NCBI GenBank assembly: GCA_022821235.1
Contig: JAJEEA010000337.1
Span: forward strand, 308-64,307
Source: Vicinamibacteria bacterium
Lineage (GTDB): Bacteria; Acidobacteriota; Vicinamibacteria; Vicinamibacterales; UBA8438
Direction of reading: 5' to 3'
DNA: 64,000 bases
Shown in pieces: positions 372 through 29,710 of this stretch (position 1 is its first letter; every line of letters starts with the position of its first letter). The notes under the pieces were generated by a model. It searched no databases, was not told the DNA's origin, and saw only the letters and a program-made list of their open reading frames with translations. A program made the position numbers and the translations under genes.

Positions 372-2810
372 TTGTCGATCGCTACGTGGGCTGCTTTTCG
401 GCGCGCAACTCCCCGCGCGGCGCTGGTGCTGCTCCTGCTGCCACTTTCCCCGACCGGGGGCGTTCTTGCGCAGGCGCAGGATGATCGCTCGCAGGCCTCT
501 CCCGCGGCGGAAGGGCCCCGACCGGGCCAGGTTGCGCCGGGCGCCCTGACTGCCACCGCAATCGATCCCGCGCTCGCCGCGGCCATCGACGGGCCCCCGC
601 CGCCGGTCGGGCCGGCGGTGATGAACCGGGACGCGGACGGGCGGACGACGGTCCGCGCCATCCGGCTCGCGACTGGCATCCGGCTGGACGGGGTGCTCGA
701 CGAGGAGGTGTACGGCGCGGTCCCGCCGATCACGGACTTCCTGCAACAGGTGCCGGTGGAGGGCGCGCCCGCGACCGAGCGGACCGAAGCCTGGATCATG
801 TTCGACGGGGAGAACGTGTACGTGTCGGCGCGCGTGCACGACTCGGCGCCCGAGAGCGAATGGGTCGCCAACGAGATGCGGCGCGATACCAACCAGTTGC
901 GGCAGAACGACACGTTCACGGTCTTCTTCGACACGTTCTACGACCGCCGCAACGGCTTCAACTTCTACACGAACCCGCTCGGCGCGCGAGCGGACCAGCA
1001 GTTCACGAACGAAGGCAATCCCAACGGCGACTGGAACCCCGTGTGGGACGTGCGCACGGGACGTTTCGACGGCGGCTGGACGGCGGAGATGGAGATACCG
1101 TTCAAGACGCTCCGCTACCGCGGCGGGGGCGCCCAGCTCTGGGGCGTGCAGTTGCGCCGCGGCGTGCGCCGCAAGAACGAGTGGACGTACCTGACGCGGA
1201 TCCCGATCTCGGCCGGCGGCGGGCGCGGAGCGGCCGGCATCTTCCGCGTCTCGGCGGGTGCGACGCTGGTGGGCATCGAGCCTCCGGAAGCCAGCCGGCT
1301 GGTCGAGATCAAGCCGTACGCCATCGGCGGCGTGACGACCGACCGGCACTCCATTCCCATCCAGGAGAACGACGGCAGCGGCGCATTCGGCGCCGACGTG
1401 AAGATGGGCATCACGGAGAACCTGACGGCAGACTTCACCTACAACACGGACTTCGCCCAGGTCGAGGTGGACGAGCAGCAGGTCAACCTGACCCGCTTCA
1501 GCCTCTTCTTTCCGGAGAAGCGGGAGTTCTTCCTCGAGGGCCGGGGCATCTTCGGGTTCGCGCGCGGCGGGGTGGGCGCCGGCAGCCCCGGCGAGCCGAG
1601 CGACGCGCCGACGCTGTTCTACAGCCGGCGGATTGGCCTGGAGGGCGACCCCAACAACGTGCAGGTGGTGGTGCCGATCCACGGCGGCGCGCGGATGACG
1701 GGCAAGGCGGGCGCCTTCGACGTCGGCGCGCTCAGCATCCAGACGGAAGAATCGCCCGAGGCAGGTACGGCGTCGACGAACTTCACGGTGCTGCGTCTGC
1801 GGCGGGACATCCTGCGGCGCAGCAGCGTGGGGGGCATCTTCACCAACCGGTCCGTATCGCAGGTCGGGCCGGGCTCCAGCCAGGCGTACGGCGTGGACGG
1901 CACGTTCTCCTTCTTCGAGAACCTCGACTTCGTGACCTACTACGCGCGCACCCGGACGCCGCTGGCCGACGGCCGGGACGCCAGCTACCAGGGCCGCTTC
2001 GACTACGGCGGCGACCGCTACGGCCTGACCGTCAACCACATCGCGGTCGAGGAGAACTTCCTGCCGGAGATCGGCTTCATGACGCGCGACAACTACCGCC
2101 GCACCAACGTGTCCGGCCGTTTCAGCCCGCGACCGCAGGGCAGCGCGCTGGTGCGCCGCTATGCGCTCGAAGCCGGCGTCGACTACTTCACCACCGCCGA
2201 CCGGGGTTTCGTCGAGACGCGCGAGCGGACCGTGGACTTCTCGACGGAGTTCCACAACAGCGACCAGTTCGAGGTGAGCCTGACCAACTCGTACGAGCTG
2301 CTGCAGGAGCCGTTCCGGATCTCGAAGGACGTGGTGCTGCCGGTCGGCGGCTACGGCTTCACGGCGGGCACGGTCTCCTACACGCTGGGCGGGCAGCACC
2401 GCGCCAGCGGCGGGCTGGCGTTCACGGCCGGCACCTTCTGGAGCGGCGACATCCGCACGCTGGAGTACCGCCAGGGCCGCATCAACGTGTCGAACCAGTT
2501 TTCCGTGGAGCCGACCATCTCGTTCAACGACATCGACCTGCCGGAGGGCGACTTCAATACCACGCTGGTCAGCACCCGCTTCAACTTCGCGTTCAACCCG
2601 CGCATGTTCTTCAGCGGACTGGTGCAGTACAACTCGAGCAACGACCGCTGGAGCAACAATCTCCGGCTGCGGTGGGAATACAGCCCGGGCAGCGAGCTGT
2701 TCGTGGTATACACCGAGGAGCGCGACGTCGGCGGGCTGAGGCCGATCCGTGTCGACGGCCTGCGCAACCGCGGCTTCGTCGTCAAGCTGAACCGCCTGTT
2801 CCGCTTATAG
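372..2810 (+). CDS. secreted CBM9-like / DUF5916 family protein
   Basis: 812 aa with an N-terminal signal (LLLLPLSPTGGVLAQAQD). The stretch IRLDGVLDEEVYGAVPPITDF..EAWIMFDGENVYVSARVHD..NDTFTVFFDTFYDRRNGFNFYTNPLGARADQ..WNPVWDV..GGWTAEMEIPFKTLRY matches the CBM9+DUF5916 pattern as I remember it. The start is TTG at 372, so the exact start is uncertain. Confidence 0.75.
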   Translation: MSIATWAAFRRATPRAALVLLLLPLSPTGGVLAQAQDDRSQASPAAEGPRPGQVAPGALTATAIDPALAAAIDGPPPPVGPAVMNRDADGRTTVRAIRLATGIRLDGVLDEEVYGAVPPITDFLQQVPVEGAPATERTEAWIMFDGENVYVSARVHDSAPESEWVANEMRRDTNQLRQNDTFTVFFDTFYDRRNGFNFYTNPLGARADQQFTNEGNPNGDWNPVWDVRTGRFDGGWTAEMEIPFKTLRYRGGGAQLWGVQLRRGVRRKNEWTYLTRIPISAGGGRGAAGIFRVSAGATLVGIEPPEASRLVEIKPYAIGGVTTDRHSIPIQENDGSGAFGADVKMGITENLTADFTYNTDFAQVEVDEQQVNLTRFSLFFPEKREFFLEGRGIFGFARGGVGAGSPGEPSDAPTLFYSRRIGLEGDPNNVQVVVPIHGGARMTGKAGAFDVGALSIQTEESPEAGTASTNFTVLRLRRDILRRSSVGGIFTNRSVSQVGPGSSQAYGVDGTFSFFENLDFVTYYARTRTPLADGRDASYQGRFDYGGDRYGLTVNHIAVEENFLPEIGFMTRDNYRRTNVSGRFSPRPQGSALVRRYALEAGVDYFTTADRGFVETRERTVDFSTEFHNSDQFEVSLTNSYELLQEPFRISKDVVLPVGGYGFTAGTVSYTLGGQHRASGGLAFTAGTFWSGDIRTLEYRQGRINVSNQFSVEPTISFNDIDLPEGDFNTTLVSTRFNFAFNPRMFFSGLVQYNSSNDRWSNNLRLRWEYSPGSELFVVYTEERDVGGLRPIRVDGLRNRGFVVKLNRLFRL

Positions 2811-2822
2811 CGGGGGAAGAAG

Positions 2823-3704
2823 ATGCTGACAAGCACGACATGGTTTCGTCTCGGTTTACTGGTGGGTCTGCCGGCCGTGTTGCTCACCGTCGCAACGCGC
2901 GCGCAGCGGGGCGACGTCGACTGGGATGCGGTGGAGATCGCCGCGCACCACGTGCGCGGGACCGTGCACTACGTGTCGGGACGCGGCGGCCACGTCGGCC
3001 TCTCCGTGGGCGACGACGGCGTCATCATGGTCGACGACCAGTTCGCCCCGCTGACCGATCGCATCCTGGCGGCGATCCGCGGCATCTCGAACGGCGACAT
3101 CCGCTTCCTCATCAACATCCACGTCCACGGCGACCACGTGGGCGGCAACGAGAACCTCGGCCGCATGGGCATTCTCATCCTGGCCCAGGACCGCGTGCGC
3201 CTGCGGCTGGCGGAGACCATGCCGGAGGTGGCGCTGCCGGCCTTCACCTACAGCGAGGACGTGACGATCCACCTGAACGGCGAGGAGGTGCACATCTTCC
3301 CCGTGCCCGCCTCGCACACGGACGGCGACAGCGTCATCCACTTCCGGGGCTCCGACGTGATGGTGGTCGGCGACGTGTTCCGCACGGTCGCGTTCCCGGT
3401 GATCGACCGCAACAACGGCGGGAGCCTGCCCGGCACCATCGAGACGCTGGGCATCATCGCCGGCCGCGCCGGCCCAGATACGCTCATCCTGCCCGGCCAC
3501 GGCGAGGTCTCGACGCGCGAGGACGTCATGGAGTTTCGCGACATGGTTATCGACGTCTCCGGCCGCGTGGCGGAGCTGGTGGAGCAGGGGATGACCTACG
3601 AGCAGGTAGCGGCCGCCGGGACCACCGCGTCGTACGAGGGCAAGTGGGGCGACCCCACCCGCTTCCTGACCGCGGTGTACGCGGAGCTGAGCGGGGCGGA
3701 CTAA
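2823..3704 (+). CDS. MBL-fold metallo-hydrolase (secreted)
   Basis: Contains the H-x-H-x-D-H motif NIHVHGDHVGGN, a later HTDGD and GHG, a signal peptide, and an SD-like GGGGGAAG upstream. Confidence 0.85.
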   Translation: MLTSTTWFRLGLLVGLPAVLLTVATRAQRGDVDWDAVEIAAHHVRGTVHYVSGRGGHVGLSVGDDGVIMVDDQFAPLTDRILAAIRGISNGDIRFLINIHVHGDHVGGNENLGRMGILILAQDRVRLRLAETMPEVALPAFTYSEDVTIHLNGEEVHIFPVPASHTDGDSVIHFRGSDVMVVGDVFRTVAFPVIDRNNGGSLPGTIETLGIIAGRAGPDTLILPGHGEVSTREDVMEFRDMVIDVSGRVAELVEQGMTYEQVAAAGTTASYEGKWGDPTRFLTAVYAELSGAD

Positions 3705-3728
3705 GCATCGTCGGCGCGATTCGAGTCC

Positions 3729-4802
3729 ATGGGGCGCGCAAGCACAGCCGCGGCGGGCTGCGTCGCCGTGGCGCTCGTGGCAACGGCCCCTGCGGCGCGG
3801 CCGCGGGCGCAAGAGGCAGAGCCGGCGCCCACCTTCGAGCGCGACGTTTCCTGGCCGAAGCCGCTGCCCGACAACTGGCGCCTCGGCATCGTCTGGGCCG
3901 TTGCGGTCGACAGCCGCGACCACGTCTGGGTGCTGCACGCGGCCGACCGCTATCTCGAAGAAATTGCCGACGCCGGCAAGCTTCCGGCGCCGCCGGTGGT
4001 CGAATTCGACCCCGAAGGCAATCTGGTGCAGGCCTGGGGCGGCCGCGATCAGGGCCGGCCGTGGGTGTACAGCATGGAGCCCCACCCCTCCGTCGGCGAG
4101 CACGGCCTGCACGTCGACCACCGCGACAACGTCTGGGTAACCGGCGGCGGGCACCTGGCGCTCAAGTTCACGCGCGCCGGCGAGTTCCTGCTCCAGATCG
4201 GCCGCCTGAACCGCACCGCAGGGAGCAACCACACGCAATACCTGGGGAATCCGTCCGGCGTGGACGTCGATCCGGAGACCAACGAGGTCTACATTGCGGA
4301 CGGCTACCTCAACAAGCGCGTGATCGTGTTCGACGGCGATACCGGTGAGTACGTGCGGCACTGGGGCCGCTACGGCGCGCCGCCGGACGATGCATTCGAA
4401 GCCGGGGAGCGGTTTCCGCGCTTCGGTCATGCCGCGCAGCTATCCGCCGACGGCCTGGTCTACGTCTCCGACCGTGAGCACGGCAGCATCCACGTGCACC
4501 GGCGCGACGGCAGCTTCGTGACCGAGGTCGAGGTGCCGGTGAAGGTGAATTCCGTGGCGTTCTCCGCCGATCCCGGCCAACGCTATCTCTACGCGGGCGG
4601 CATGCGCACAGGCGCCAACGGCCGCTACGACCTGGAGGTGGACGGACGGATCGTGATCCTCCGCCGCAGCGACCTGCAGGTGCTGGGTTCCTTCGAAAGT
4701 GCCGGCCAGCACTTCTTCGACGTCGATTCCCGGGGCAACATCTACACCTGCGGCCGCTTCATGCCCGAGAAGTTCGTCCCGGTCGTGCCGCCGCCCCGCT
4801 AG
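3729..4802 (+). CDS. NHL-repeat / peptidyl-hydroxyglycine-lyase-like beta-propeller protein (secreted)
   Basis: Signal peptide plus repeated propeller-blade motifs (VAVDSRDHVWVL, LHVDHRDNVWVTG, GVDVDPETNEVYIADGYLNKRVIVFD, LSADGLVYVSDREHGSIHV, FDVDSRGNIYT). Confidence 0.65.
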   Translation: MGRASTAAAGCVAVALVATAPAARPRAQEAEPAPTFERDVSWPKPLPDNWRLGIVWAVAVDSRDHVWVLHAADRYLEEIADAGKLPAPPVVEFDPEGNLVQAWGGRDQGRPWVYSMEPHPSVGEHGLHVDHRDNVWVTGGGHLALKFTRAGEFLLQIGRLNRTAGSNHTQYLGNPSGVDVDPETNEVYIADGYLNKRVIVFDGDTGEYVRHWGRYGAPPDDAFEAGERFPRFGHAAQLSADGLVYVSDREHGSIHVHRRDGSFVTEVEVPVKVNSVAFSADPGQRYLYAGGMRTGANGRYDLEVDGRIVILRRSDLQVLGSFESAGQHFFDVDSRGNIYTCGRFMPEKFVPVVPPPR

Positions 4803-4873: not shown

Positions 4874-5161
4874 ATGCGATTCGTGAGCGTTCGCGAGCTG
4901 CGGGCTCGTTCGGCGGCCGTGTGGAAGACCCTGGCGCAGGAGAAGGAGCTTGTCGTCACGTCCAACGGCAAGCCGATCGCACTGCTGTCCGCGACGTCGG
5001 AAGAGCGGCTCGAAGAATCGCTGGACGCTGTGCGCCGCGCCCGCGCCCAGGCGGCCGTCGCGGCGATTCAGGACGCTTCCCTGCAGTCCGGGACTCACCG
5101 GATAACGCTGGACAGGATCAACGCTGAAATCGACGCCGTCCGCCGAGACCGCGCCAGATGA
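4874..5161 (+). CDS. type II antitoxin, Phd/YefM-like
   Basis: MRFVSVRELRARSAAVWKTLAQEKELVVTSNGKPIALLSA...; the stop overlaps the PIN start (ATGA at 5158-5161). I chose the internal ATG at 4874 of ORF 4826..5161. Confidence 0.7.
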   Translation: MRFVSVRELRARSAAVWKTLAQEKELVVTSNGKPIALLSATSEERLEESLDAVRRARAQAAVAAIQDASLQSGTHRITLDRINAEIDAVRRDRAR

Positions 5162-5583
5162 ACGTCGTGCTCGACACGAACGTCCTGGTGTCTGGTCTCA
5201 TCACTCCGTTCGGTCCGGCGGCGGATATCATGCGCTTGCTGGCGGCCGGCGCCATTCGGGCCTGCTACGACGCCCGCATACTGGGGGAGTACCGCGAGGT
5301 GCTCGCGCGCCTAGCGTTCGGATTCGCCGCTGAACGGATAGAGGCGCTGCTCGACCAAATCAGGGCCGACGGCCTGCTCGTCACGGCGCGGCCCCTGGCC
5401 ACGCACCTGCCCGACCCGGACGATGAGATGTTCCTGGCAGTCGCGCTCGCGGCAGGCGCAACCTGCCTCGTGACAGGCAATCTCCGCCATTTTCCCGAGG
5501 AGAGCCGGCAAGGCCTGTCCGTTGTATCCCCGCGGCGCTTTCTCGATGTGTACGGCGACGAGTTGGCGTCTTCCGGCGCGTGA
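5158..5583 (+). CDS. PIN-domain toxin
   Basis: MNVVLDTNVLVSGLITPFGP...DPDDEMFLAVALAAGATCLVTGNLRHF shows typical PIN acidic motifs and is translationally coupled to the upstream antitoxin. Confidence 0.8.
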   Translation: MNVVLDTNVLVSGLITPFGPAADIMRLLAAGAIRACYDARILGEYREVLARLAFGFAAERIEALLDQIRADGLLVTARPLATHLPDPDDEMFLAVALAAGATCLVTGNLRHFPEESRQGLSVVSPRRFLDVYGDELASSGA

Positions 5584-23350: not shown

Positions 23351-23630
23351 CGTGGCCGCCCCTCGGCCGGGGGTCGGTGACGGCCGGCTCGGGCGGGTGC
23401 GGTCCGCGAGGCTGGCGCGTCCGTCTGCCGGCCCGGTGACGTCCATCGCCTTGCTCCTCATCGGGCGTCGGGAGCTGCCGGACCAGGCCCGGGGATTCTA
23501 CCGGACCTCGACGCGTGCCGTACAGGCTCCACTTCACCCGCCGCGTCAATCGCTACGATCAGATCGCGCGTTGGTCCGCCTCATGGTCGCGACTCCACAT
23601 TTTGTGCAGCTTCGACGGCATCGAAGCGCG

Positions 23631-24245
23631 TCAGCGGAACAGTTGTCGAAGCCAGTCGCAGAGCTCTTCAGCGGCTGGAGCCGTCGCATCGAGGTCACCC
23701 GCGCCGATGGCGCCCCCCATTTTCCTTGGCTCGGCTCTGGCGGCCAGCCAAGCGTGTAGTCGAGCTTTCAGGATCTTTCCGGGCTTGAACTTGCGAGCCG
23801 TGTCGGGAATGCTCTCGATATAGGCGCTGGCGAGCGGCCACACGGGATCCTCGGCGGCAATCAAGCCGGCGACGAAGTTCTCGAGCTCGCCCGGGGAGTC
23901 GTTATCGGGCATCAGCCAGATTCCCGCTCGGGGTTTGCCCTCGACTATCGTACCGGTCTGCGTCATGGACGGCGGCGGTTCGAGACCTGCTCCTCGAAGA
24001 CGGCCTGCTATCGACTGCCACCGCGCCTGCGGATTGTCGTTCGCATCGGCCAGAATGCCGACCGCGAGCCGGCCGGGGGCCTTGATTTCGGGACCGATTG
24101 CCCGGACGAGTGCCGGAAGGCCGGTCTTGTCGGCGATCTCGAAGTCCGGGATGTCCGGTCTGGCGTTGCAGAGGTGTCGCACGACGTGCTTGTCGTCGGC
24201 TTCCTCCACCAGCAGGATCCGACCAGGGGGCGACCCTGGGGCCAT
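23631..24245 (-). CDS. small Toprim-like protein (DUF3226/DUF4276-like), partner of the upstream ATPase
   Basis: 204 aa from the ATG at 24245: MAPGSPPGRILLVEEADDKHVVRHL...LAVGILADANDNP...IWLMPDNDSPGELENF. There is an acidic Glu early and a D-x-x-D cluster later, as in Toprim-fold partners of OLD-type ATPases. It begins 4 nt after the ATPase stop. The family name comes from memory and is not verified. Confidence 0.6.
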   Translation of the reverse strand: MAPGSPPGRILLVEEADDKHVVRHLCNARPDIPDFEIADKTGLPALVRAIGPEIKAPGRLAVGILADANDNPQARWQSIAGRLRGAGLEPPPSMTQTGTIVEGKPRAGIWLMPDNDSPGELENFVAGLIAAEDPVWPLASAYIESIPDTARKFKPGKILKARLHAWLAARAEPRKMGGAIGAGDLDATAPAAEELCDWLRQLFR

Positions 24246-24249
24246 GCGG

Positions 24250-25374
24250 CTACCTGACCTCGATGCCCTGCTCGGCAATCGCCTCGAGGTCTTCCTCGGT
24301 GTACTCGACCGGTCGCACGTCCTGGCCGTCACGATCGAGCCGCACCAGAGCGCCCGCAACATCGCCGATTTCCGTTGCCGCCTGCGCGAAGCCACGCACG
24401 CAATCCCAGCTATGAGTCGTAGCCAACACCTGCACGTTGTTCTGCTGCGCGGCGCGGAGGACCGTGCGCCAGAAGTCGCGCTGGACAGAGTGGTGGAACC
24501 CGTTCTCCGCTTCGTCGACGACGAGGAAGCCGTCGCGACTGTTGGCGAGGGCCAATCCGGCCGCGAACATGCGCGGGACGCCGTCGCCGAGGCTCTTGAG
24601 CGGGACGGGACGAGCCTGGTTCTTCAGCTTCACGACCACGCGGCGGCGATGGCTTCGCTGGTCGTCGCTGACCACCGCGACGCGATCGATGTCGTCACCG
24701 ATGAGGCGCAGAGCGTCTATCGAGAGGTCCTCCGCTTCGGTCAGCGTGACGTTGTCCCACAAGCGCGCGATTCTGTTGTTGCTTGGCAGTCCCGGCCCCA
24801 GGGACTCGCATTCGATGATCGGCCACTCGGTGTCGTCGTTGCGCCATGCACGATGGAGATCCCAGACGTAACGGCTTCGCGCCCAACTCCTGTTTCGTTC
24901 ACTTGCCGGCAGAAACCACGGAAGCAGCCGTTCTTCTCGCCGATACTCGATCTTGATGGCCTGCATTCGGGCGGGTTGGTCAGCGAACAGACTCTGTTGG
25001 GCCGGAAGCGTGGACACCTCGATTCGGAGGTCGTCCTTGCCGCCCGCCGGACCAATGGTGATGGACTGCCCGTGCGTTCCGACGCGGCCGTGGAACAGGG
25101 CGGCGTAGTCGGGAAAAACGACGGGATCCCGATCCTCGTCGAGAGCGGCGGCGAATTCCTCCCGGCGCTCCAGCACGTCGTGCAACACGTTCGGGCGCGC
25201 CCGGGCGGCGTAAACGCGCACCGCCTCGAGCACGGTGGTCTTGCCCGCACCGTTGCGGCCGGTCAACAGGGTCACGCGGCCAAGCCGGGCGATGGAGAGA
25301 CGCGCGATACCGCGAAAGCCGGTTATCGACAAGTCGGGAATGTGCAGGTTCGCGTGTATGCGTTGGTCGGACAT
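24250..25374 (-). CDS. ABC-type (AAA_21/AAA_15-like, OLD-family-like) ATPase
   Basis: Walker A is GRNGAGKTT. It also has KSLGDG signature-like residues, Walker B/D-loop FLVVDEAENGFH and H-loop LATTHS. GC looks visibly lower than in the flanks. Confidence 0.8.
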   Translation of the reverse strand: MSDQRIHANLHIPDLSITGFRGIARLSIARLGRVTLLTGRNGAGKTTVLEAVRVYAARARPNVLHDVLERREEFAAALDEDRDPVVFPDYAALFHGRVGTHGQSITIGPAGGKDDLRIEVSTLPAQQSLFADQPARMQAIKIEYRREERLLPWFLPASERNRSWARSRYVWDLHRAWRNDDTEWPIIECESLGPGLPSNNRIARLWDNVTLTEAEDLSIDALRLIGDDIDRVAVVSDDQRSHRRRVVVKLKNQARPVPLKSLGDGVPRMFAAGLALANSRDGFLVVDEAENGFHHSVQRDFWRTVLRAAQQNNVQVLATTHSWDCVRGFAQAATEIGDVAGALVRLDRDGQDVRPVEYTEEDLEAIAEQGIEVR

Positions 25375-25413
25375 GCGAATCCGCGGCTACTGATGTGCGC
25401 TGGAAGGCGCCGT

Positions 25414-25449
25414 GATTCCATCCGCGCCGGTATCGGCCCGGATGGAATC
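25414..25449 (-). terminator. strong hairpin directly after the stop of gene 25453..26472
   Basis: GATTCCATCCGCGCCG-GTAT-CGGCCCGGATGGAATC forms 16 paired positions with one mismatch, 4 nt downstream of the TAG stop. There is no U-tract, which is common in high-GC genomes. Confidence 0.5.
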
Positions 25450-25452
25450 TCT

Positions 25453-26472
25453 CTAGGGGCCGACGTTGACGGTAACGTCCTGGTGGGTCGCGAGTCCGCC
25501 GTCGTGGGCGAGGGCGCGGACCACGTAGCGGCCCGGCCGGTAGAAGGTCGCCTCGACCACCCACGTCCCGTCCTCGGGCGGCTCGGGCGTCTTCCAGCCC
25601 GGAGCCCACGGTGAGTCGGCGCCGGCGCGGTAGTCCTCCCAGACCTTGAACTGCGGCGGGTCGAACGTGACCGCGCCCGGGCCGCGGTAGACGATCCAGG
25701 CGACGCGCAGGCCGCTCGCGCTGTTCGGGGTGCCCGCCCCGATGCGGGTGGTGCCGATGCGCGGGGCCGGCATGTTCCGCGTCCTCGGCACGCCGTCGTC
25801 GGTGGCGTGCGCCCGCAGGACCACGGGCTCGCCGACGGTCGTGCGCCGGACGGACAGGCCGTCGACCTCCAGCTCCGGCCGCTGGTTGCCGAAGATGTTG
25901 TAGGCGCCCCCGGCCGGCCCGCCGGCGCCGTTGTTGTTCATGATCGCGACGTCGTCGAGGAAGTAGTCGGGATGCAGCGTCGCGTAGGCGCGCTCCGTCT
26001 CGCCGCGGCTCGTGAGCGTCCAGACCAGCTCGCTATCGCCGAAGTCGGCGGGTACGCGGACGCGGAAGACGTGCCGGTTCCGCCGCGGCTGGAAGCGCGT
26101 GGGCTGGCCGCGGTCCGGGCTGCCCGGCTCGATCCGGTTGTCGAGGCCGATGGGGACCTCGAGCGGGTCCCAGCTTCGGTTCATGTAGCCGAAGACCAGG
26201 TTGAACGACCCGTCGTCGTTCCTCTCCCAGCCCTCGTAGGCCGGGGCGATGCTCAGCTCGCGCCCCGGCCGGTCGTCGGCTTCGTCCTGGGCCTGCACCG
26301 TACCCGGGGCGGCGACGAGGGCCGCGGCCAGGAGGGCCGCGGCGCCGGCCGCGGCTCCCGTCCCTCGCGGCCCCGACGTCTGCGTCGTGCCCGCCATCGC
26401 CGCACGGCGCGCTCCTTCGCCTCGGTCGCTACCCCGACCAGGCGGCTCCGGCGTCCGCGTCATCCTCGCCAT
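25453..26472 (-). CDS. secreted hypothetical protein (co-transcribed with the cytochrome-c/monooxygenase-like gene)
   Basis: The ATG at 26472 lies 2 nt after the upstream stop. It has a signal peptide (AAGAAALLAAALVAAPGTVQAQDE) and well-composed sequence to the stop. I do not recognise a family. Confidence 0.7.
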   Translation of the reverse strand: MARMTRTPEPPGRGSDRGEGARRAAMAGTTQTSGPRGTGAAAGAAALLAAALVAAPGTVQAQDEADDRPGRELSIAPAYEGWERNDDGSFNLVFGYMNRSWDPLEVPIGLDNRIEPGSPDRGQPTRFQPRRNRHVFRVRVPADFGDSELVWTLTSRGETERAYATLHPDYFLDDVAIMNNNGAGGPAGGAYNIFGNQRPELEVDGLSVRRTTVGEPVVLRAHATDDGVPRTRNMPAPRIGTTRIGAGTPNSASGLRVAWIVYRGPGAVTFDPPQFKVWEDYRAGADSPWAPGWKTPEPPEDGTWVVEATFYRPGRYVVRALAHDGGLATHQDVTVNVGP

Positions 26473-26474
26473 CG

Positions 26475-27905
26475 CTACTGGCCCCCGGTGTTGTCGGCAG
26501 CGGCCGGCACCAGCTCCGACGGGTCGGGGTAGCCGCACAGCGGGCAGCCGATGACCGTCTCGCCCGGCGCGAGGCCCAGACGCTCGCGGCGCGCCGCCAT
26601 CTCGTCGGCGAACTCCTGGTCGGTCAGCGACACCGCCTGCCCGATGTTGATCATCATGTTGTCGATCGAGCGGTGGCCCAGCCCCGACCAGTTCCGCGGG
26701 TCGGAGACGTTGGGGTTGCTCGGCGTGTTGTCGAAGTAGCCCCTGATGCGCAGGATGGTGCCGCGCGGCAGCAGCGGCGCCGCGTCGTCCTCGAACGTGT
26801 ACACCCGCACCCAGTTGTGGTTGTAGCCGGCGCAGCTCAGGGTCTCGACGTTGTTCTGCCAGATGGCGTCCAGGCACATCCGCACCCCCGCCGCGTGCAT
26901 GTGCGGCTAGTACACCATCATCTTGGTGTGCTCCATCAGGGTGCTGAACGCCTCGAACTCCTGGTCGGCCTCCATCGGGCGGATGTCGAGCTCGACGGTC
27001 GCCGGACCGATGATCTCCACCGTGCGCGACGGCTCGTAGCCCTCGGGGTGGAACTTGAACCCCATCTCGAGCTGGGCGCGGGTGTGGCGCCCGTTCGAGT
27101 GCAGGTGGGCGGACGGGAACAGGATCTTCGAGCCCGCCTTCAGCAGCTTGCCGGCGTCTGGATGGAAGACGTCGGGGTTGCGTCCCACCTCGTGGACCGG
27201 CCAGAAGCCGGCCTCCTCGACCGGCCGGCCGTCGGGACCGACGGGCAGCACGACGAGGTGGTGGATGACGTAGAGCCCGCCGATGGTGTCGCGCTCGGCC
27301 GGCCCCTCCCAGGTGCTCACCTCGCGCATCTCGACGGCCGCGACGTAGCGATCCTCGGTCAGCCCGGTCTCGGACTCGCCCATCGGCCCCCACCAGTCGG
27401 GCGCCGTCGCGGGGACCTCGATCTCAGGGGACTTGACGACGAGGTCGGGCTCGCCGATCTGCCAGCCCGACGCGTCGACGACGCGGGTCACGGCCGGCCG
27501 GTCGACCGGCTCGCCGCGCGGGGCGCCGTCGTCGACCCAGGCCCCGATGAGGGCGATCTCCTCGGCGCTCAGCGAGATGTCGCCCTTGTAGTCCTGGATG
27601 CCGACGTCCTTCTCGATGTACCACGGCGGCATCACGTCCGGCTTGCCGACCCGCCCGGTGCGGTACTTGATGGACCGCGCCCAGGGCCGCACGTCCTCGT
27701 AGGTCAGCAGCGGCATCGGCGCCACCGACTCGGGGCGGTGGCAGTTCTGGCAGCTCCGCTCGAGGATGGGCGCGATGTCGCGATGGTAGGTGACGGCGTC
27801 CGTCTCGTCGGCGGACTGAGCCGCGGCCGGCGCGGCGAGCACGGCGATGGCGGCGGCGGTCAGGCCGGCCGCGAAACAACGTCCCCGGAAGCTCGATGCA
27901 GGCAT
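26475..27905 (-). pseudogene. cytochrome-c (CxxCH) domain fused to a PHM/DBH-like copper-monooxygenase-like domain, interrupted by an in-frame TAG at 26907-26909
   Basis: ORFs 26907..28670 (real start ATG 27905, MPASSFRGRCFAAGL...CQNCHRPESVAPM) and 26475..26900 are in the same frame, separated only by TAG-CCG-CAC. The His clusters span the break: VIHHLVV, SAHLHSNG | TAG | PH-MHAAG...DNMM. Confidence 0.65.
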
Positions 27906-28154
27906 CAGGACGGCCTCCTCGCGTGGCGATGTGACGACGGTGCAGGTGCGTAGTCCTATCGTAGTGGACCGGTCCGGCGGAATCAACGTGCCGTCGCTCG
28001 CGATGCTGCGGTAGGCTACTCGGTGGGCGGTTGGGTGCCGGTGGGGGATCCTGACGGCGGCCTGGAGCACTTGCGGACCGAGGCGATCGTCGGCGCCCGA
28101 TTCGATGATTCCGTCTCGCCGGCCGCGGGCGGCCCCGGCGAACGGGACTCTGCG

Positions 28155-28598
28155 ATGACACTGGACCAGTGGCGCATGCTGCGCCGGCGGGCGAAGGCGG
28201 TCCACCGCGACGAGGAACCCGACGTTCTGGCCCCGCCGGAGGCCTTCAGCGATCGCCGCGCCGACGACAGATTCCGGAACGAGCACTTGCCGGGGCACGA
28301 TCCGGCGGCCATTCGGGGACTGAGCGCCGCGGTTCGCAGCCGTATCGCCAGCAGTTGCTGCGGTTGGGTGGTCCGGCCGACCAGCGCGGAGTTCTACGAG
28401 GCGATCCACGCCGACACGCTGACGAAGCGCCAGCGGGCCCTGATCCGCATGTGGACCCGAGAGGCGGAACCCGCTCAGATCGTCCTGGCATGGGCCGAAG
28501 AGGTGTACACGCTCCGCGAGCTGGTCGCCGCCGTCCACCGGGCGCATGCGGACCATCCTCAGGTTGCGAGAGAGCTGAACCGGCTGGCGCGACGATGA
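28155..28598 (+). CDS. hypothetical protein, putative cognate antitoxin/regulator of the downstream AbiEii-like toxin
   Basis: 147 codons with high third-position GC. The stop overlaps the toxin start (ATGA at 28595-28598). The sequence does not resemble canonical AbiEi as far as I can tell. Confidence 0.45.
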   Translation: MTLDQWRMLRRRAKAVHRDEEPDVLAPPEAFSDRRADDRFRNEHLPGHDPAAIRGLSAAVRSRIASSCCGWVVRPTSAEFYEAIHADTLTKRQRALIRMWTREAEPAQIVLAWAEEVYTLRELVAAVHRAHADHPQVARELNRLARR

Positions 28599-29545
28599 CC
28601 GACCGGCGGAAGGCGGAAGACCTGACCCTGCCGGAACCGGCCCGGACCATCCTCGCCCGGACACGCCCAATCCTGGACGCGTACGTCACCCCGCACACAC
28701 CGGACCGGACCGGATGGCAGATCGGGGGAGGGACCATCCTCGCCGCGCGCTGGCGGCACCGCGAGAGCCATGACATCGACCTGCTGGTTCCCCCGCGTAC
28801 CGAGACCCGGTTCCTGCATCCCGAGGCCGCACCGGAGCTGCACCGACGGCTCGAGGCCGCCGGCGCCAGGAAGATCACGTTCGGTCGATTCAGCCAGATC
28901 CTGTTCGAGGAATCGCGGATCGAGATGCTGGCGGCGGACCCGCAGCCGCGATTCGGTCATCGACGGGCGATCGTCGGCGGCAGTGAGGCTACCGCGCTGG
29001 CGTCGAGCCAGATCCTGACCGGCAAGTTCAGCAACCGTTCCCTGAACCCGCCGGTTCGGGATCTCTACGACCTCGCGGTGGCCGGAACCACCGCGCCGCG
29101 GGCGCTCGCCGTCGCCGTCAACGCCTTGGCGGGACACGACATCCGCTGGCGGCTCGTGAGCTGGGAGATGGAGCGCGAGAAGTTCGCGGAGGAAGGGGCC
29201 TTCGAGCTCCACGGCGTGCCGCTCCGGTACGAAGCGATACGGGCCGACCCGGCCGACCACGCCAGACGTGCGGTGATGAACGCGGTGTACCGACAGGTGC
29301 GGTTGCTTGTGCACGACGGCGCGGCAGTCGTCGAAACCGAGACCGGACTCGGTCGCGAAACACGGCTCCACGACAGGTCGGACGACCTCGCGGAGCGATT
29401 CGAGGCGGACGGGATCAACGCCGTGCTCGCGGCGGCGGGGACCGACCCGGAGAGAATCCGCCGTGAAATGGCGACGGCGATGCGGAACGACCGGAACGTC
29501 ACGGTCCTGGAACTCGAACAGGATCGGGCCGCGTGGGGATGGTAG
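28595..29545 (+). CDS. nucleotidyltransferase AbiEii/AbiGii-family toxin (DUF1814-like)
   Basis: GWQIGGGTILAARWRHRESHDIDLLV matches the GGTAL...HR.S.DIDL NTase motif of AbiEii, and RDLYDL occurs later. 316 aa. Confidence 0.75.
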   Translation: MTDRRKAEDLTLPEPARTILARTRPILDAYVTPHTPDRTGWQIGGGTILAARWRHRESHDIDLLVPPRTETRFLHPEAAPELHRRLEAAGARKITFGRFSQILFEESRIEMLAADPQPRFGHRRAIVGGSEATALASSQILTGKFSNRSLNPPVRDLYDLAVAGTTAPRALAVAVNALAGHDIRWRLVSWEMEREKFAEEGAFELHGVPLRYEAIRADPADHARRAVMNAVYRQVRLLVHDGAAVVETETGLGRETRLHDRSDDLAERFEADGINAVLAAAGTDPERIRREMATAMRNDRNVTVLELEQDRAAWGW

Positions 29546-29710
29546 CTCGAGGAGGCGCCGGAATCGACGTGCCGTTCCGGCGTGGCTGCGGTAGTCTACC
29601 GGGAGACGGGTCGCGCGGCGCCGGGGCCGCCGCCGGCGGTGCCCGTCGTCACCGTGAATCGCGACCGGCGGGCGACGCCGCGGACGAAGCGGCCACGCGG
29701 GAGACGGACG

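Follow-up and report, generated by a model that had tools for sequence, protein, structure and literature searches.

Modules that combine an ATP-binding cassette (ABC) ATPase with a Toprim domain, such as OLD, Gabija, PARIS and retron-OLD, are a major theme of bacterial immunity. OLD and Gabija cleave DNA by a two-metal mechanism (PMC10568477), and in PARIS the AriA scaffold releases AriB, which cuts tRNA (PMC11464382). A further set of candidates, the PDC systems, was compiled from genes nested within Hma, BREX, DISARM and type I restriction–modification (RM) loci; the 145 PDC systems are "guilt-by-embedding" candidates described as untested, and PDC-M38 is listed in a supplementary table of that study (Payne et al., 2024, bioRxiv 10.1101/2024.01.29.577857). 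Here, we describe a gene pair of this kind in DNA of a Vicinamibacteria bacterium (contig JAJEEA010000337.1). The window is the whole 64-kb stretch that was analyzed, and coordinates count from its first letter. The pair lies on the minus strand and consists of gene A (24250–25374), encoding a compact ABC-type ATPase of 374 amino acids (aa) that belongs to the PDC-M38A family, and gene B (23631–24245), encoding a 204-aa DUF3226 protein (PDC-M38B).

Every sequence criterion places the pair in PDC-M38. We regard it, with moderate confidence, as a self-contained OLD-like two-gene conflict module of the anti-phage, abortive-infection type. This assignment is carried by the gene structure and family membership of the pair, the intact motifs of its ATPase, the strict pairing of the two genes in other genomes, their foreign composition and mobility signatures, and their embedding in Hma and RM loci.

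The ATPase and its DUF3226 partner

Both open reading frames (ORFs) start with ATG, and the TAG stop codon of A is separated from the ATG of B by the 4-nt spacer CCGC (24246–24249, minus strand), which suggests that the two genes may be translationally coupled. Database homologues were up to 95% identical to A (E = 1e-235) and up to 93% identical to B (E = 3e-122), and both ORFs are genuine genes. The start codons were confirmed by the near-constant lengths of the homologues (~375–385 aa for A and ~204 aa for B).

A matched Pfam AAA_21 (4e-18) and AAA_15 (1e-16), both above the gathering thresholds, and its N-terminus gave weak matches to RecF (4.5e-8) and SMC_N. In PADLOC, residues 14–374 aligned to positions 4–383 of the 383-position PDC-M38A profile (PDLC04611; E = 8.1e-78), and the AriA, GajA, PtuA and MAD3 models were matched more weakly. 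The best PDB sequence match was the Thermus OLD nuclease TsOLD (6p74, 1e-5). The complete ABC motif set was present and was invariant across the 55 homologues over which it was scored. It comprises the Walker A motif or P-loop GRNGAGKTT (residues 39–47, 25234–25260; invariant G39, N41, G44, K45, T46 and T47), the ABC signature-like LKSLGDG (residues 259–265, 24580–24600; invariant L259, L262, G263, D264 and G265), the Walker B motif with D-loop, FLVVDEAENGFH (residues 283–294, 24493–24528; invariant F283, D287, E288, E290, N291, G292 and H294), which includes FLVVDE and the D-loop AENG, and the H-loop TTHS (residues 319–322, 24409–24420; invariant T319, T320, H321 and S322), all encoded on the minus strand. 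E288 is the putative catalytic glutamate. When the AlphaFold2 (AF2) model of A (predicted local distance difference test score, pLDDT, 77.8) was searched against the PDB with Foldseek, 474 matches were obtained at E ≤ 1e-3, the top ones being retron/Septu PtuA ATPases and SMC heads (E ~1e-13, probability 1.00). The region between the Walker A and signature motifs consists mostly of beta strands in this model, and no coiled coil was predicted there. These results assign A to the ABC ATPases of AAA_15/AAA_21 (OLD/AriA/PtuA) type.

B matched Pfam DUF3226 over its full length (E = 3.3e-47; 161 bits against a cut-off of 27). In PADLOC, residues 10–203 aligned to positions 15–218 of the 220-position PDC-M38B profile (PDLC04624; E = 9.7e-33), and nothing beyond the two PDC-M38B models was matched at E ≤ 1. 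Within the gene (23631–24245, minus strand), a predicted Toprim part (~residues 9–122) is followed by a C-terminal helical bundle (~residues 135–203). Toprim motif 1, LLVEEADDKH (residues 11–20, 24186–24215), carries after beta-1 the putative catalytic glutamate E14, which 135 of 137 ungapped family members share. The second Toprim motif, DANDN (residues 67–71, 24033–24047), follows beta-3 and is the equivalent of DxD: position 67 is Asp in 147 of 150 members, and position 69 is Asn in 81 and Asp in 66. The window copy reads D-A-N, and DxN occurs in 54% of the family sample. Motif 3, WLMPDNDSPGELE (residues 110–122, 23880–23918), follows beta-4 and contributes a further cluster of acidic residues and Asn, with P113, N115, G119 and E122 each kept in at least 146 of 150 members. 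All three motifs are encoded on the minus strand, and the putative active site comprises E14, D67/N69 and D114/N115/E122.

The window copy of B deviates from its family at codon 15 (GAA, Glu; 24201–24203, minus strand). This residue is the Gly of the "VEG" turn and adjoins the putative catalytic glutamate; 130 of 136 family members have Gly here, Glu occurs in this copy alone, and the codon is GGA in the syntenic relative L001, whose B is 93% identical. The substitution, G15E, may attenuate the predicted nuclease of this copy, or it may be an assembly or sequencing error.

B is a probable, highly divergent OLD-like Toprim, because four independent lines of evidence, each weak individually, are concordant. 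The AF2 model of B (pLDDT 94.1) contains strand 9–13, helix 16–27, strand 36–39, helix 43–55, strand 61–67, helix 72–85, a minor strand 99–101 and strand 106–112; compared by element order and without coordinate superposition, this is the b1-a1-b2-a2-b3-a3-b4 arrangement of Toprim followed by a helical bundle, and the model together with the family alignment places the near-invariant residues at the Toprim catalytic positions. At the family level, sub-threshold matches to PF20469 (OLD-like_TOPRIM; E ≤ 1, best 2.7e-4) were obtained from 44 of 150 diverse DUF3226 members, far more often than to any other family (OLD-like_TOPRIM_1 and DUF4276, 2/150 each; DUF4435, 1/150 with E = 0.11).

The third line is a profile comparison. 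Alignment of the DUF3226 family profile with the Toprim and C-terminal region of P2 Old by hhalign gave P = 9.2e-5 and a probability of 59%, in a register that places LLVEGxDD on LLVEGKTE and D-A-N on the D-C-D of P2 Old. The probability is limited by the shallow profile on the OLD side (number of effective sequences, Neff, 1.6). Attempts to diversify this profile yielded only five fragments from a homologue search with the P2 Old C-terminal region, only close relatives from a scan of viral contigs, and nothing from tblastn of that region against plasmids. The weak hidden Markov model (HMM) matches between the DUF3226 family and Old were reciprocal best matches against a background of ~1,400 proteins. 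The fourth line is the Foldseek search, in which the top PDB match of B was AriB in the PARIS complex (8v46_D, E = 0.027, probability 0.41) and the Toprim of RNase M5 was matched locally (6z2b_C, 78 columns, root-mean-square deviation 3.7, probability 0.77); neither was significant, and a structural Toprim match is not claimed since nothing reached E ≤ 1e-3. Sequence searches of the PDB with B, as a single sequence or as a 50-sequence profile, returned no meaningful match.

Pairing, neighborhoods and mobility

The DUF3226 family comprises 3,845 clusters at 50% identity (E ≤ 1e-3), and its best 150 representatives are stand-alone proteins, mostly of 200–230 aa and of 274 aa at most. At least 464 relatives were found in 185,579 GTDB species representatives. 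To describe their neighborhoods, 81 loci were surveyed, 80 from GTDB species representatives and one from the close relative L001; genes were predicted by codon log-odds scoring, which for L001 gives the same genes as the public annotation. The loci span Acidobacteriota, Chloroflexota, Latescibacterota, Gemmatimonadota, Rhodothermales, Nitrospirales, Binatia, Proteobacteria, Acidimicrobiia and Spirochaetia. The close relatives (L002–L081) are nearly all metagenome-assembled genomes (MAGs) of uncultured lineages (Latescibacterota, Dehalococcoidia, Bryobacterales, Vicinamibacterales, Rhodothermales, Binatia and Nitrospirales), and several bin names among them (SB0661 and RHO2/RHO3) presumably resemble those of sponge-microbiome projects.

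A homologue of A lay directly upstream of the DUF3226 gene on the same strand in all 81 loci. The gap between the two genes was mostly 1–7 nt with a mode of 4 nt (25 of 68 loci), and the identities of the A and B homologues to the window pair were correlated (r = 0.56). No third gene was conserved, the 616 neighbors in the surveyed loci falling into 446 clusters.

In 11 of 80 loci the pair was located, on the same strand, between HmaB (a DUF1156 methylase) and HmaC (a HEPN-DUF499 ATPase), both recognized by PADLOC with E = 0. Only 1,485 Hma systems have been found in 234,099 genomes (Payne et al., 2024, bioRxiv 10.1101/2024.01.29.577857), and given this rarity the frequency is far beyond chance. 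A methylase was positioned directly upstream of the pair in four more loci, being type IIG/DrmMI-like in L024 and L028 and type III in L066 and L068, and a large RM-type methylase was present within 10 kb of the pair in 20 of 80 loci. In four Latescibacterota loci (L020, L036, L039 and L055) the HmaB–HmaC gap, at about 5–13 kb in each locus, holds other cargo beside the pair, namely a Schlafen AlbA_2 + HATPase_c_4 protein (~409 aa, with weak matches to proteins associated with prokaryotic Argonautes), a DUF488 protein, and an MNT-like nucleotidyltransferase followed by a gene of ~134 aa.

A second, divergent pair of an ABC-ATPase and a DUF3226-like protein was found within 10 kb of the first in L023 (5922–7642, minus strand) and L058 (18583–20369, plus strand). 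The partner proteins of these second pairs matched the family HMM with E values of 1e-17 to 1e-19 and carry the motifs QLLVEGKDQ and GIVRD[TA]E; the double pairs are paralogous systems side by side.

The GC content of the pair was mostly below that of its flanks (67 of 74 loci; median difference −5.4 points; Wilcoxon, 1e-12), and copies were found on six plasmids. On the 13.8-kb mobilizable MOBQ plasmid pAHTJR2 of Acinetobacter haemolyticus (L092), the pair adjoins BrnT/BrnA and a rep gene. The ATPase upstream of DUF3226 in this copy (2014–3858) is annotated as two "AAA family ATPase" coding sequences (2014–2703 and 2891–3175), and is probably a disrupted gene. A copy on a Plesiomonas megaplasmid lies beside P2-like tail genes.

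The locus in the window

The window copy shares the deviant composition. GC is 0.63–0.67 over 23500–25500 against 0.70–0.77 outside (500-nt windows), and is 0.653 for the pair as a whole against 0.710 for the remaining window; at third codon positions (GC3) it is 0.80 in A and 0.74 in B, compared with 0.96–0.97 in the neighboring genes. The relative L001, a MAG contig (GCA_965243615.1), has 90–91% nucleotide identity and is syntenic over the oligopeptidase gene, B, A, two upstream genes and a pyrroloquinoline quinone (PQQ) dehydrogenase gene. Because the cassette occupies the same site at this identity, it was present in the common ancestor of the two, and its foreign composition therefore marks an older transfer. 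The pair is horizontally acquired. The codon differences of window B from its L001 counterpart are 30 synonymous versus 14 non-synonymous, which we count in support of a conflict module.

Both edges of the block conserved in L001 vary. At the intergenic stretch downstream of B (23351–23630), blastn showed that L001 has a 1.25-kb insertion (L001 11863–13109) between B and the oligopeptidase gene, with genes of 240 aa (plus strand) and 133 aa (minus strand) that had no PADLOC match. Since L001 carries two extra genes where the window has 82 nt, the position immediately downstream of B is a hotspot of insertion. A 1.5-kb segment of the window (28018–29547) is missing from L001. It contains a gene for an AbiEii-like nucleotidyltransferase (28595–29545; Pfam PF08843, 2.4e-6) and, upstream of it, an ORF without matches (28023–28598), and is possibly a small toxin–antitoxin (TA)/Abi-type module inserted beside the conserved block.

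A hairpin with perfect 11-bp arms (25414–25449; folding z = −4.7) lies between the stop codon of the upstream minus-strand operon (25453–25455) and the start of A, beginning 4 nt past that stop codon. It was considered as a repeated element and rejected as such, being the only copy in the window. No T-run follows it, and a terminator search found no canonical terminator there. The hairpin is probably the 3′ end of the upstream operon, in which case A and B would need their own promoter or read-through.

One flank of the pair is a prolyl oligopeptidase gene (Pfam, 1e-87). The genes on the other flank had been called "monooxygenase" in an earlier note on this DNA, a label that found no confirmation: Pfam returned nothing at E ≤ 1e-3, and sequence matches in the PDB did not rise above chance level (E ≥ 0.03). 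The remaining description of the locus in that note agrees with ours. It had given a 374-aa ATPase of ABC type, a 4-nt gap and a 204-aa protein; the first has the full catalytic motif set and the AAA_15/AAA_21 matches, and every motif quoted (GRNGAGKTT, LVVDEAENGFH and ATTHS; ILLVEEADDKHVVRHL, GILADANDN and MPDNDSPGELE) is present. It had also named the oligopeptidase, placed a strong hairpin at the operon end, and taken the lower GC as a sign of horizontal acquisition, to which the date of the transfer, before the split from L001, is now added.

Several other features of the window were noted. The gene at 26475–27905 encodes a conserved 476-aa secreted protein with an N-terminal CxxCH motif and no Pfam match. 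It is interrupted by an in-frame TAG (26907–26909, minus strand), the counterpart of which in L001 is GAG (Glu) in an uninterrupted ORF, and the TAG is either a nonsense mutation, making this a pseudogene, or an assembly error. Single Pfam matches to Uma2 (a putative restriction endonuclease), PIN_3 and DUF4143 were found among the window proteins, and an overlapping pair of genes for 95 and 141 aa at 4874–5583 resembles a TA module. No tRNA gene, sought as an island landmark, was found in the window.

Proposed function and comparison with known systems

PARIS provides the best working model for the pair (PMC11464382). A would bind ATP, dimerize or oligomerize, and act as sensor and regulator, and B would be a small, metal-dependent two-metal Toprim nuclease whose C-terminal helical bundle may bind the partner or the substrate. 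If PARIS, OLD and Gabija are a guide, A would form a complex with B and keep it inactive until a phage cue, the presumed trigger, shifts the ATPase state of A; released B would then cleave nucleic acid, either DNA or tRNA/RNA, and the infected cell would stop growing, giving the predicted defence phenotype. With no coiled coil in A, the complex probably does not assemble as the AriA hexamer does.

Several observations weigh against a defence module. Relatives of B, unlike those of OLD and PARIS, did not turn up in phage genomes or viral contigs, and the searchable literature yielded no experiments on any DUF3226 system. HEC-01, a cassette of similar build, gave no defence in its authors' assays (bioRxiv 10.1101/2024.01.29.577857), and some ATPases of the OLD family have non-defence roles, archaeal Cran1 being an example (PMC12796447). 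Window B had no Pfam Toprim match at E ≤ 1 and no Foldseek match in the PDB or BFVD at E ≤ 1e-3 (best E = 0.027), and G15E might impair this copy. The pair also lies among housekeeping genes: only 2 of the 46 other window genes had PADLOC matches, a single one each, to PDC-S01 (3e-76) and PDC-S03 (1e-16), and apart from the pair the window is no defence island.

The rival explanations are less well supported. The pair could be a TA-like addiction or stabilization module of mobile DNA, with B as a toxin nuclease, A as its ATP-dependent neutralizer, and selfish persistence as the outcome. Copies on Acinetobacter plasmids of 9.7–40 kb, one of them beside BrnT/BrnA and rep, a GC content lower than that of the host in most loci, the variable flanks of the cassette, and the Pfam description of AAA_21 as a "putative AbiEii toxin, Type IV TA system" would all fit such a role. 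We nevertheless consider it unlikely, as the majority of copies lie on chromosomes, the window copy, like its neighbors, has descended vertically (91% identity), and repeated embedding in Hma and RM loci is a signature for predicting defence rather than addiction; the two roles are, moreover, compatible with each other.

RecF and RecR form an ABC-ATPase and Toprim pair, and an SMC/RecF-like ATPase with a RecR-like Toprim might likewise be a housekeeping factor in DNA transactions such as repair, recombination or cell-cycle control. The weak RecF and SMC_N matches at the N-terminus of A, the SMC heads among its best structural matches, the housekeeping context in the window, and the Cran1 precedent (PMC12796447) point in this direction. 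A patchy distribution (at least 464 relatives in 185,579 species representatives), foreign GC in 67 of 74 loci, copies on plasmids, paralogous pairs side by side in some loci, and neighborhoods that are diverse (446 clusters from 616 neighbors) save for recurrent RM and Hma genes all speak against it, and we hold this to be improbable, somewhat more so than addiction. That the pair is an accessory of Hma or RM systems, lacking an independent function, seems least credible and indeed very improbable: it does lie in the HmaB–HmaC gap in 11 of 80 loci and right after a large methylase in four more, but 60 of 80 loci, as well as the window and L001, have no such neighbor within 10 kb, and independent embedded systems such as Septu occur mostly outside Hma (Payne et al., bioRxiv 10.1101/2024.01.29.577857).

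As a candidate conflict module, the pair belongs to a kind that is already catalogued, and it will not surprise a specialist. No main-text mention of DUF3226, PF11536 or PDC-M38 was found in the searchable literature. For the window, the result is a routine upgrade of the annotation, in which "AAA family ATPase + DUF3226" becomes "PDC-M38-type defence candidate, possibly attenuated by G15E", and the pair is useful as a clean test case. The DUF3226 branch is large, strictly two-gene and repeatedly nested in Hma and RM loci, and its effector is among the smallest Toprim-like proteins. Knowing the substrate and trigger of B would add a class to the OLD-like family and would also test the sequester-and-release logic of PARIS without a coiled-coil scaffold. 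Tentatively, the compact ATPase and DUF3226 may even represent a distinct fifth OLD-like branch, defined by a 204-aa minimal Toprim effector (DxN in half of the family) and an ATPase without the coiled-coil scaffold of PARIS, Gabija and Septu. If so, sensing and firing would follow another logic of assembly, one example being an ATP-gated, RecF/RecR-like heterocomplex on nucleic acid. The pair is widespread among uncultured MAG lineages, including Acidobacteriota, Chloroflexota and Latescibacterota, and not in the hotspots of phages or satellites.

Comparison with the described systems places the pair closest to PDC-M38. Both proteins match the PDC-M38 HMMs over their full length, adjacency, strand and A-then-B order agree, and relatives of the pair occur inside Hma and RM loci, such embedding being what defines PDC systems. 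In sequence there is no difference; the window copy differs in standing alone among housekeeping genes and in carrying G15E. The list of possible families for the small partner in the earlier note included the correct one, DUF3226, and its check against defence libraries led to PDC-M38A/B for both proteins. The survey of homologue neighborhoods placed 11 of 80 pairs in Hma and 20 of 80 near a large RM-type methylase, and comparison of the B structure with Toprim folds upheld the order of elements but gave no significant Foldseek match. Of its proposal of a split OLD of the PARIS or AbiL class, the split architecture of an ATPase and a Toprim-like protein stands, and membership of PARIS and AbiL does not. 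Its doubt that B is AriB or RloB was right; B has no PADLOC match to AriB or AbiLii.

Like PARIS (AriA and AriB, a DUF4435 Toprim; OLD class 4), the pair splits an ABC ATPase of the AAA_15/21 type from a separate small Toprim-like protein, and AriB chains are the top, non-significant, Foldseek PDB matches of B. However, B matches neither PADLOC AriB nor Pfam DUF4435, and PARIS membership was rejected on this ground. A, with 374 aa, an insert rich in beta strands and neither coiled-coil nor helical-bundle inserts in its model, is also unlike the hexameric scaffold type of AriA, and AriA models match it at 5e-22 and 3e-16 compared with 8e-78 for PDC-M38A. AbiL is likewise a two-gene operon, and A matches AbiLi (PDLC02336) over its full length at 9.4e-48, but PDC-M38A exceeds AbiLi by ~100 bits and B has no AbiLii match at E ≤ 1, for which reason AbiL was rejected.

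OLD class 1 (P2 Old, TsOLD) and class 2 (GajA) have the same two domain types, but theirs are fused in chains of ~530–590 aa (P2 Old 586, the TsOLD chain 528, the PADLOC GajA model 570) with a dimerization insert. In the pair, the domains are split, the ATPase is minimal, the Toprim-like part falls below Pfam thresholds and the motif reads DxN. Neither fused A–B forms, in the 81 loci or the best 150 family representatives, nor a conserved helicase neighbor were found, and with separate genes and no UvrD-like helicase partner, a class 2 trait, classes 1 and 2 were rejected. HEC-01 (Payne et al., 2024) is also a two-gene cassette pairing an ABC ATPase with a Toprim-like protein and embedded in Hma, but A matches HEC-01A models only weakly (~1e-13) and B has no HEC-01B match. 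By analogy, the pair would resemble OLD and PARIS in its working, and it is a member of no established system.

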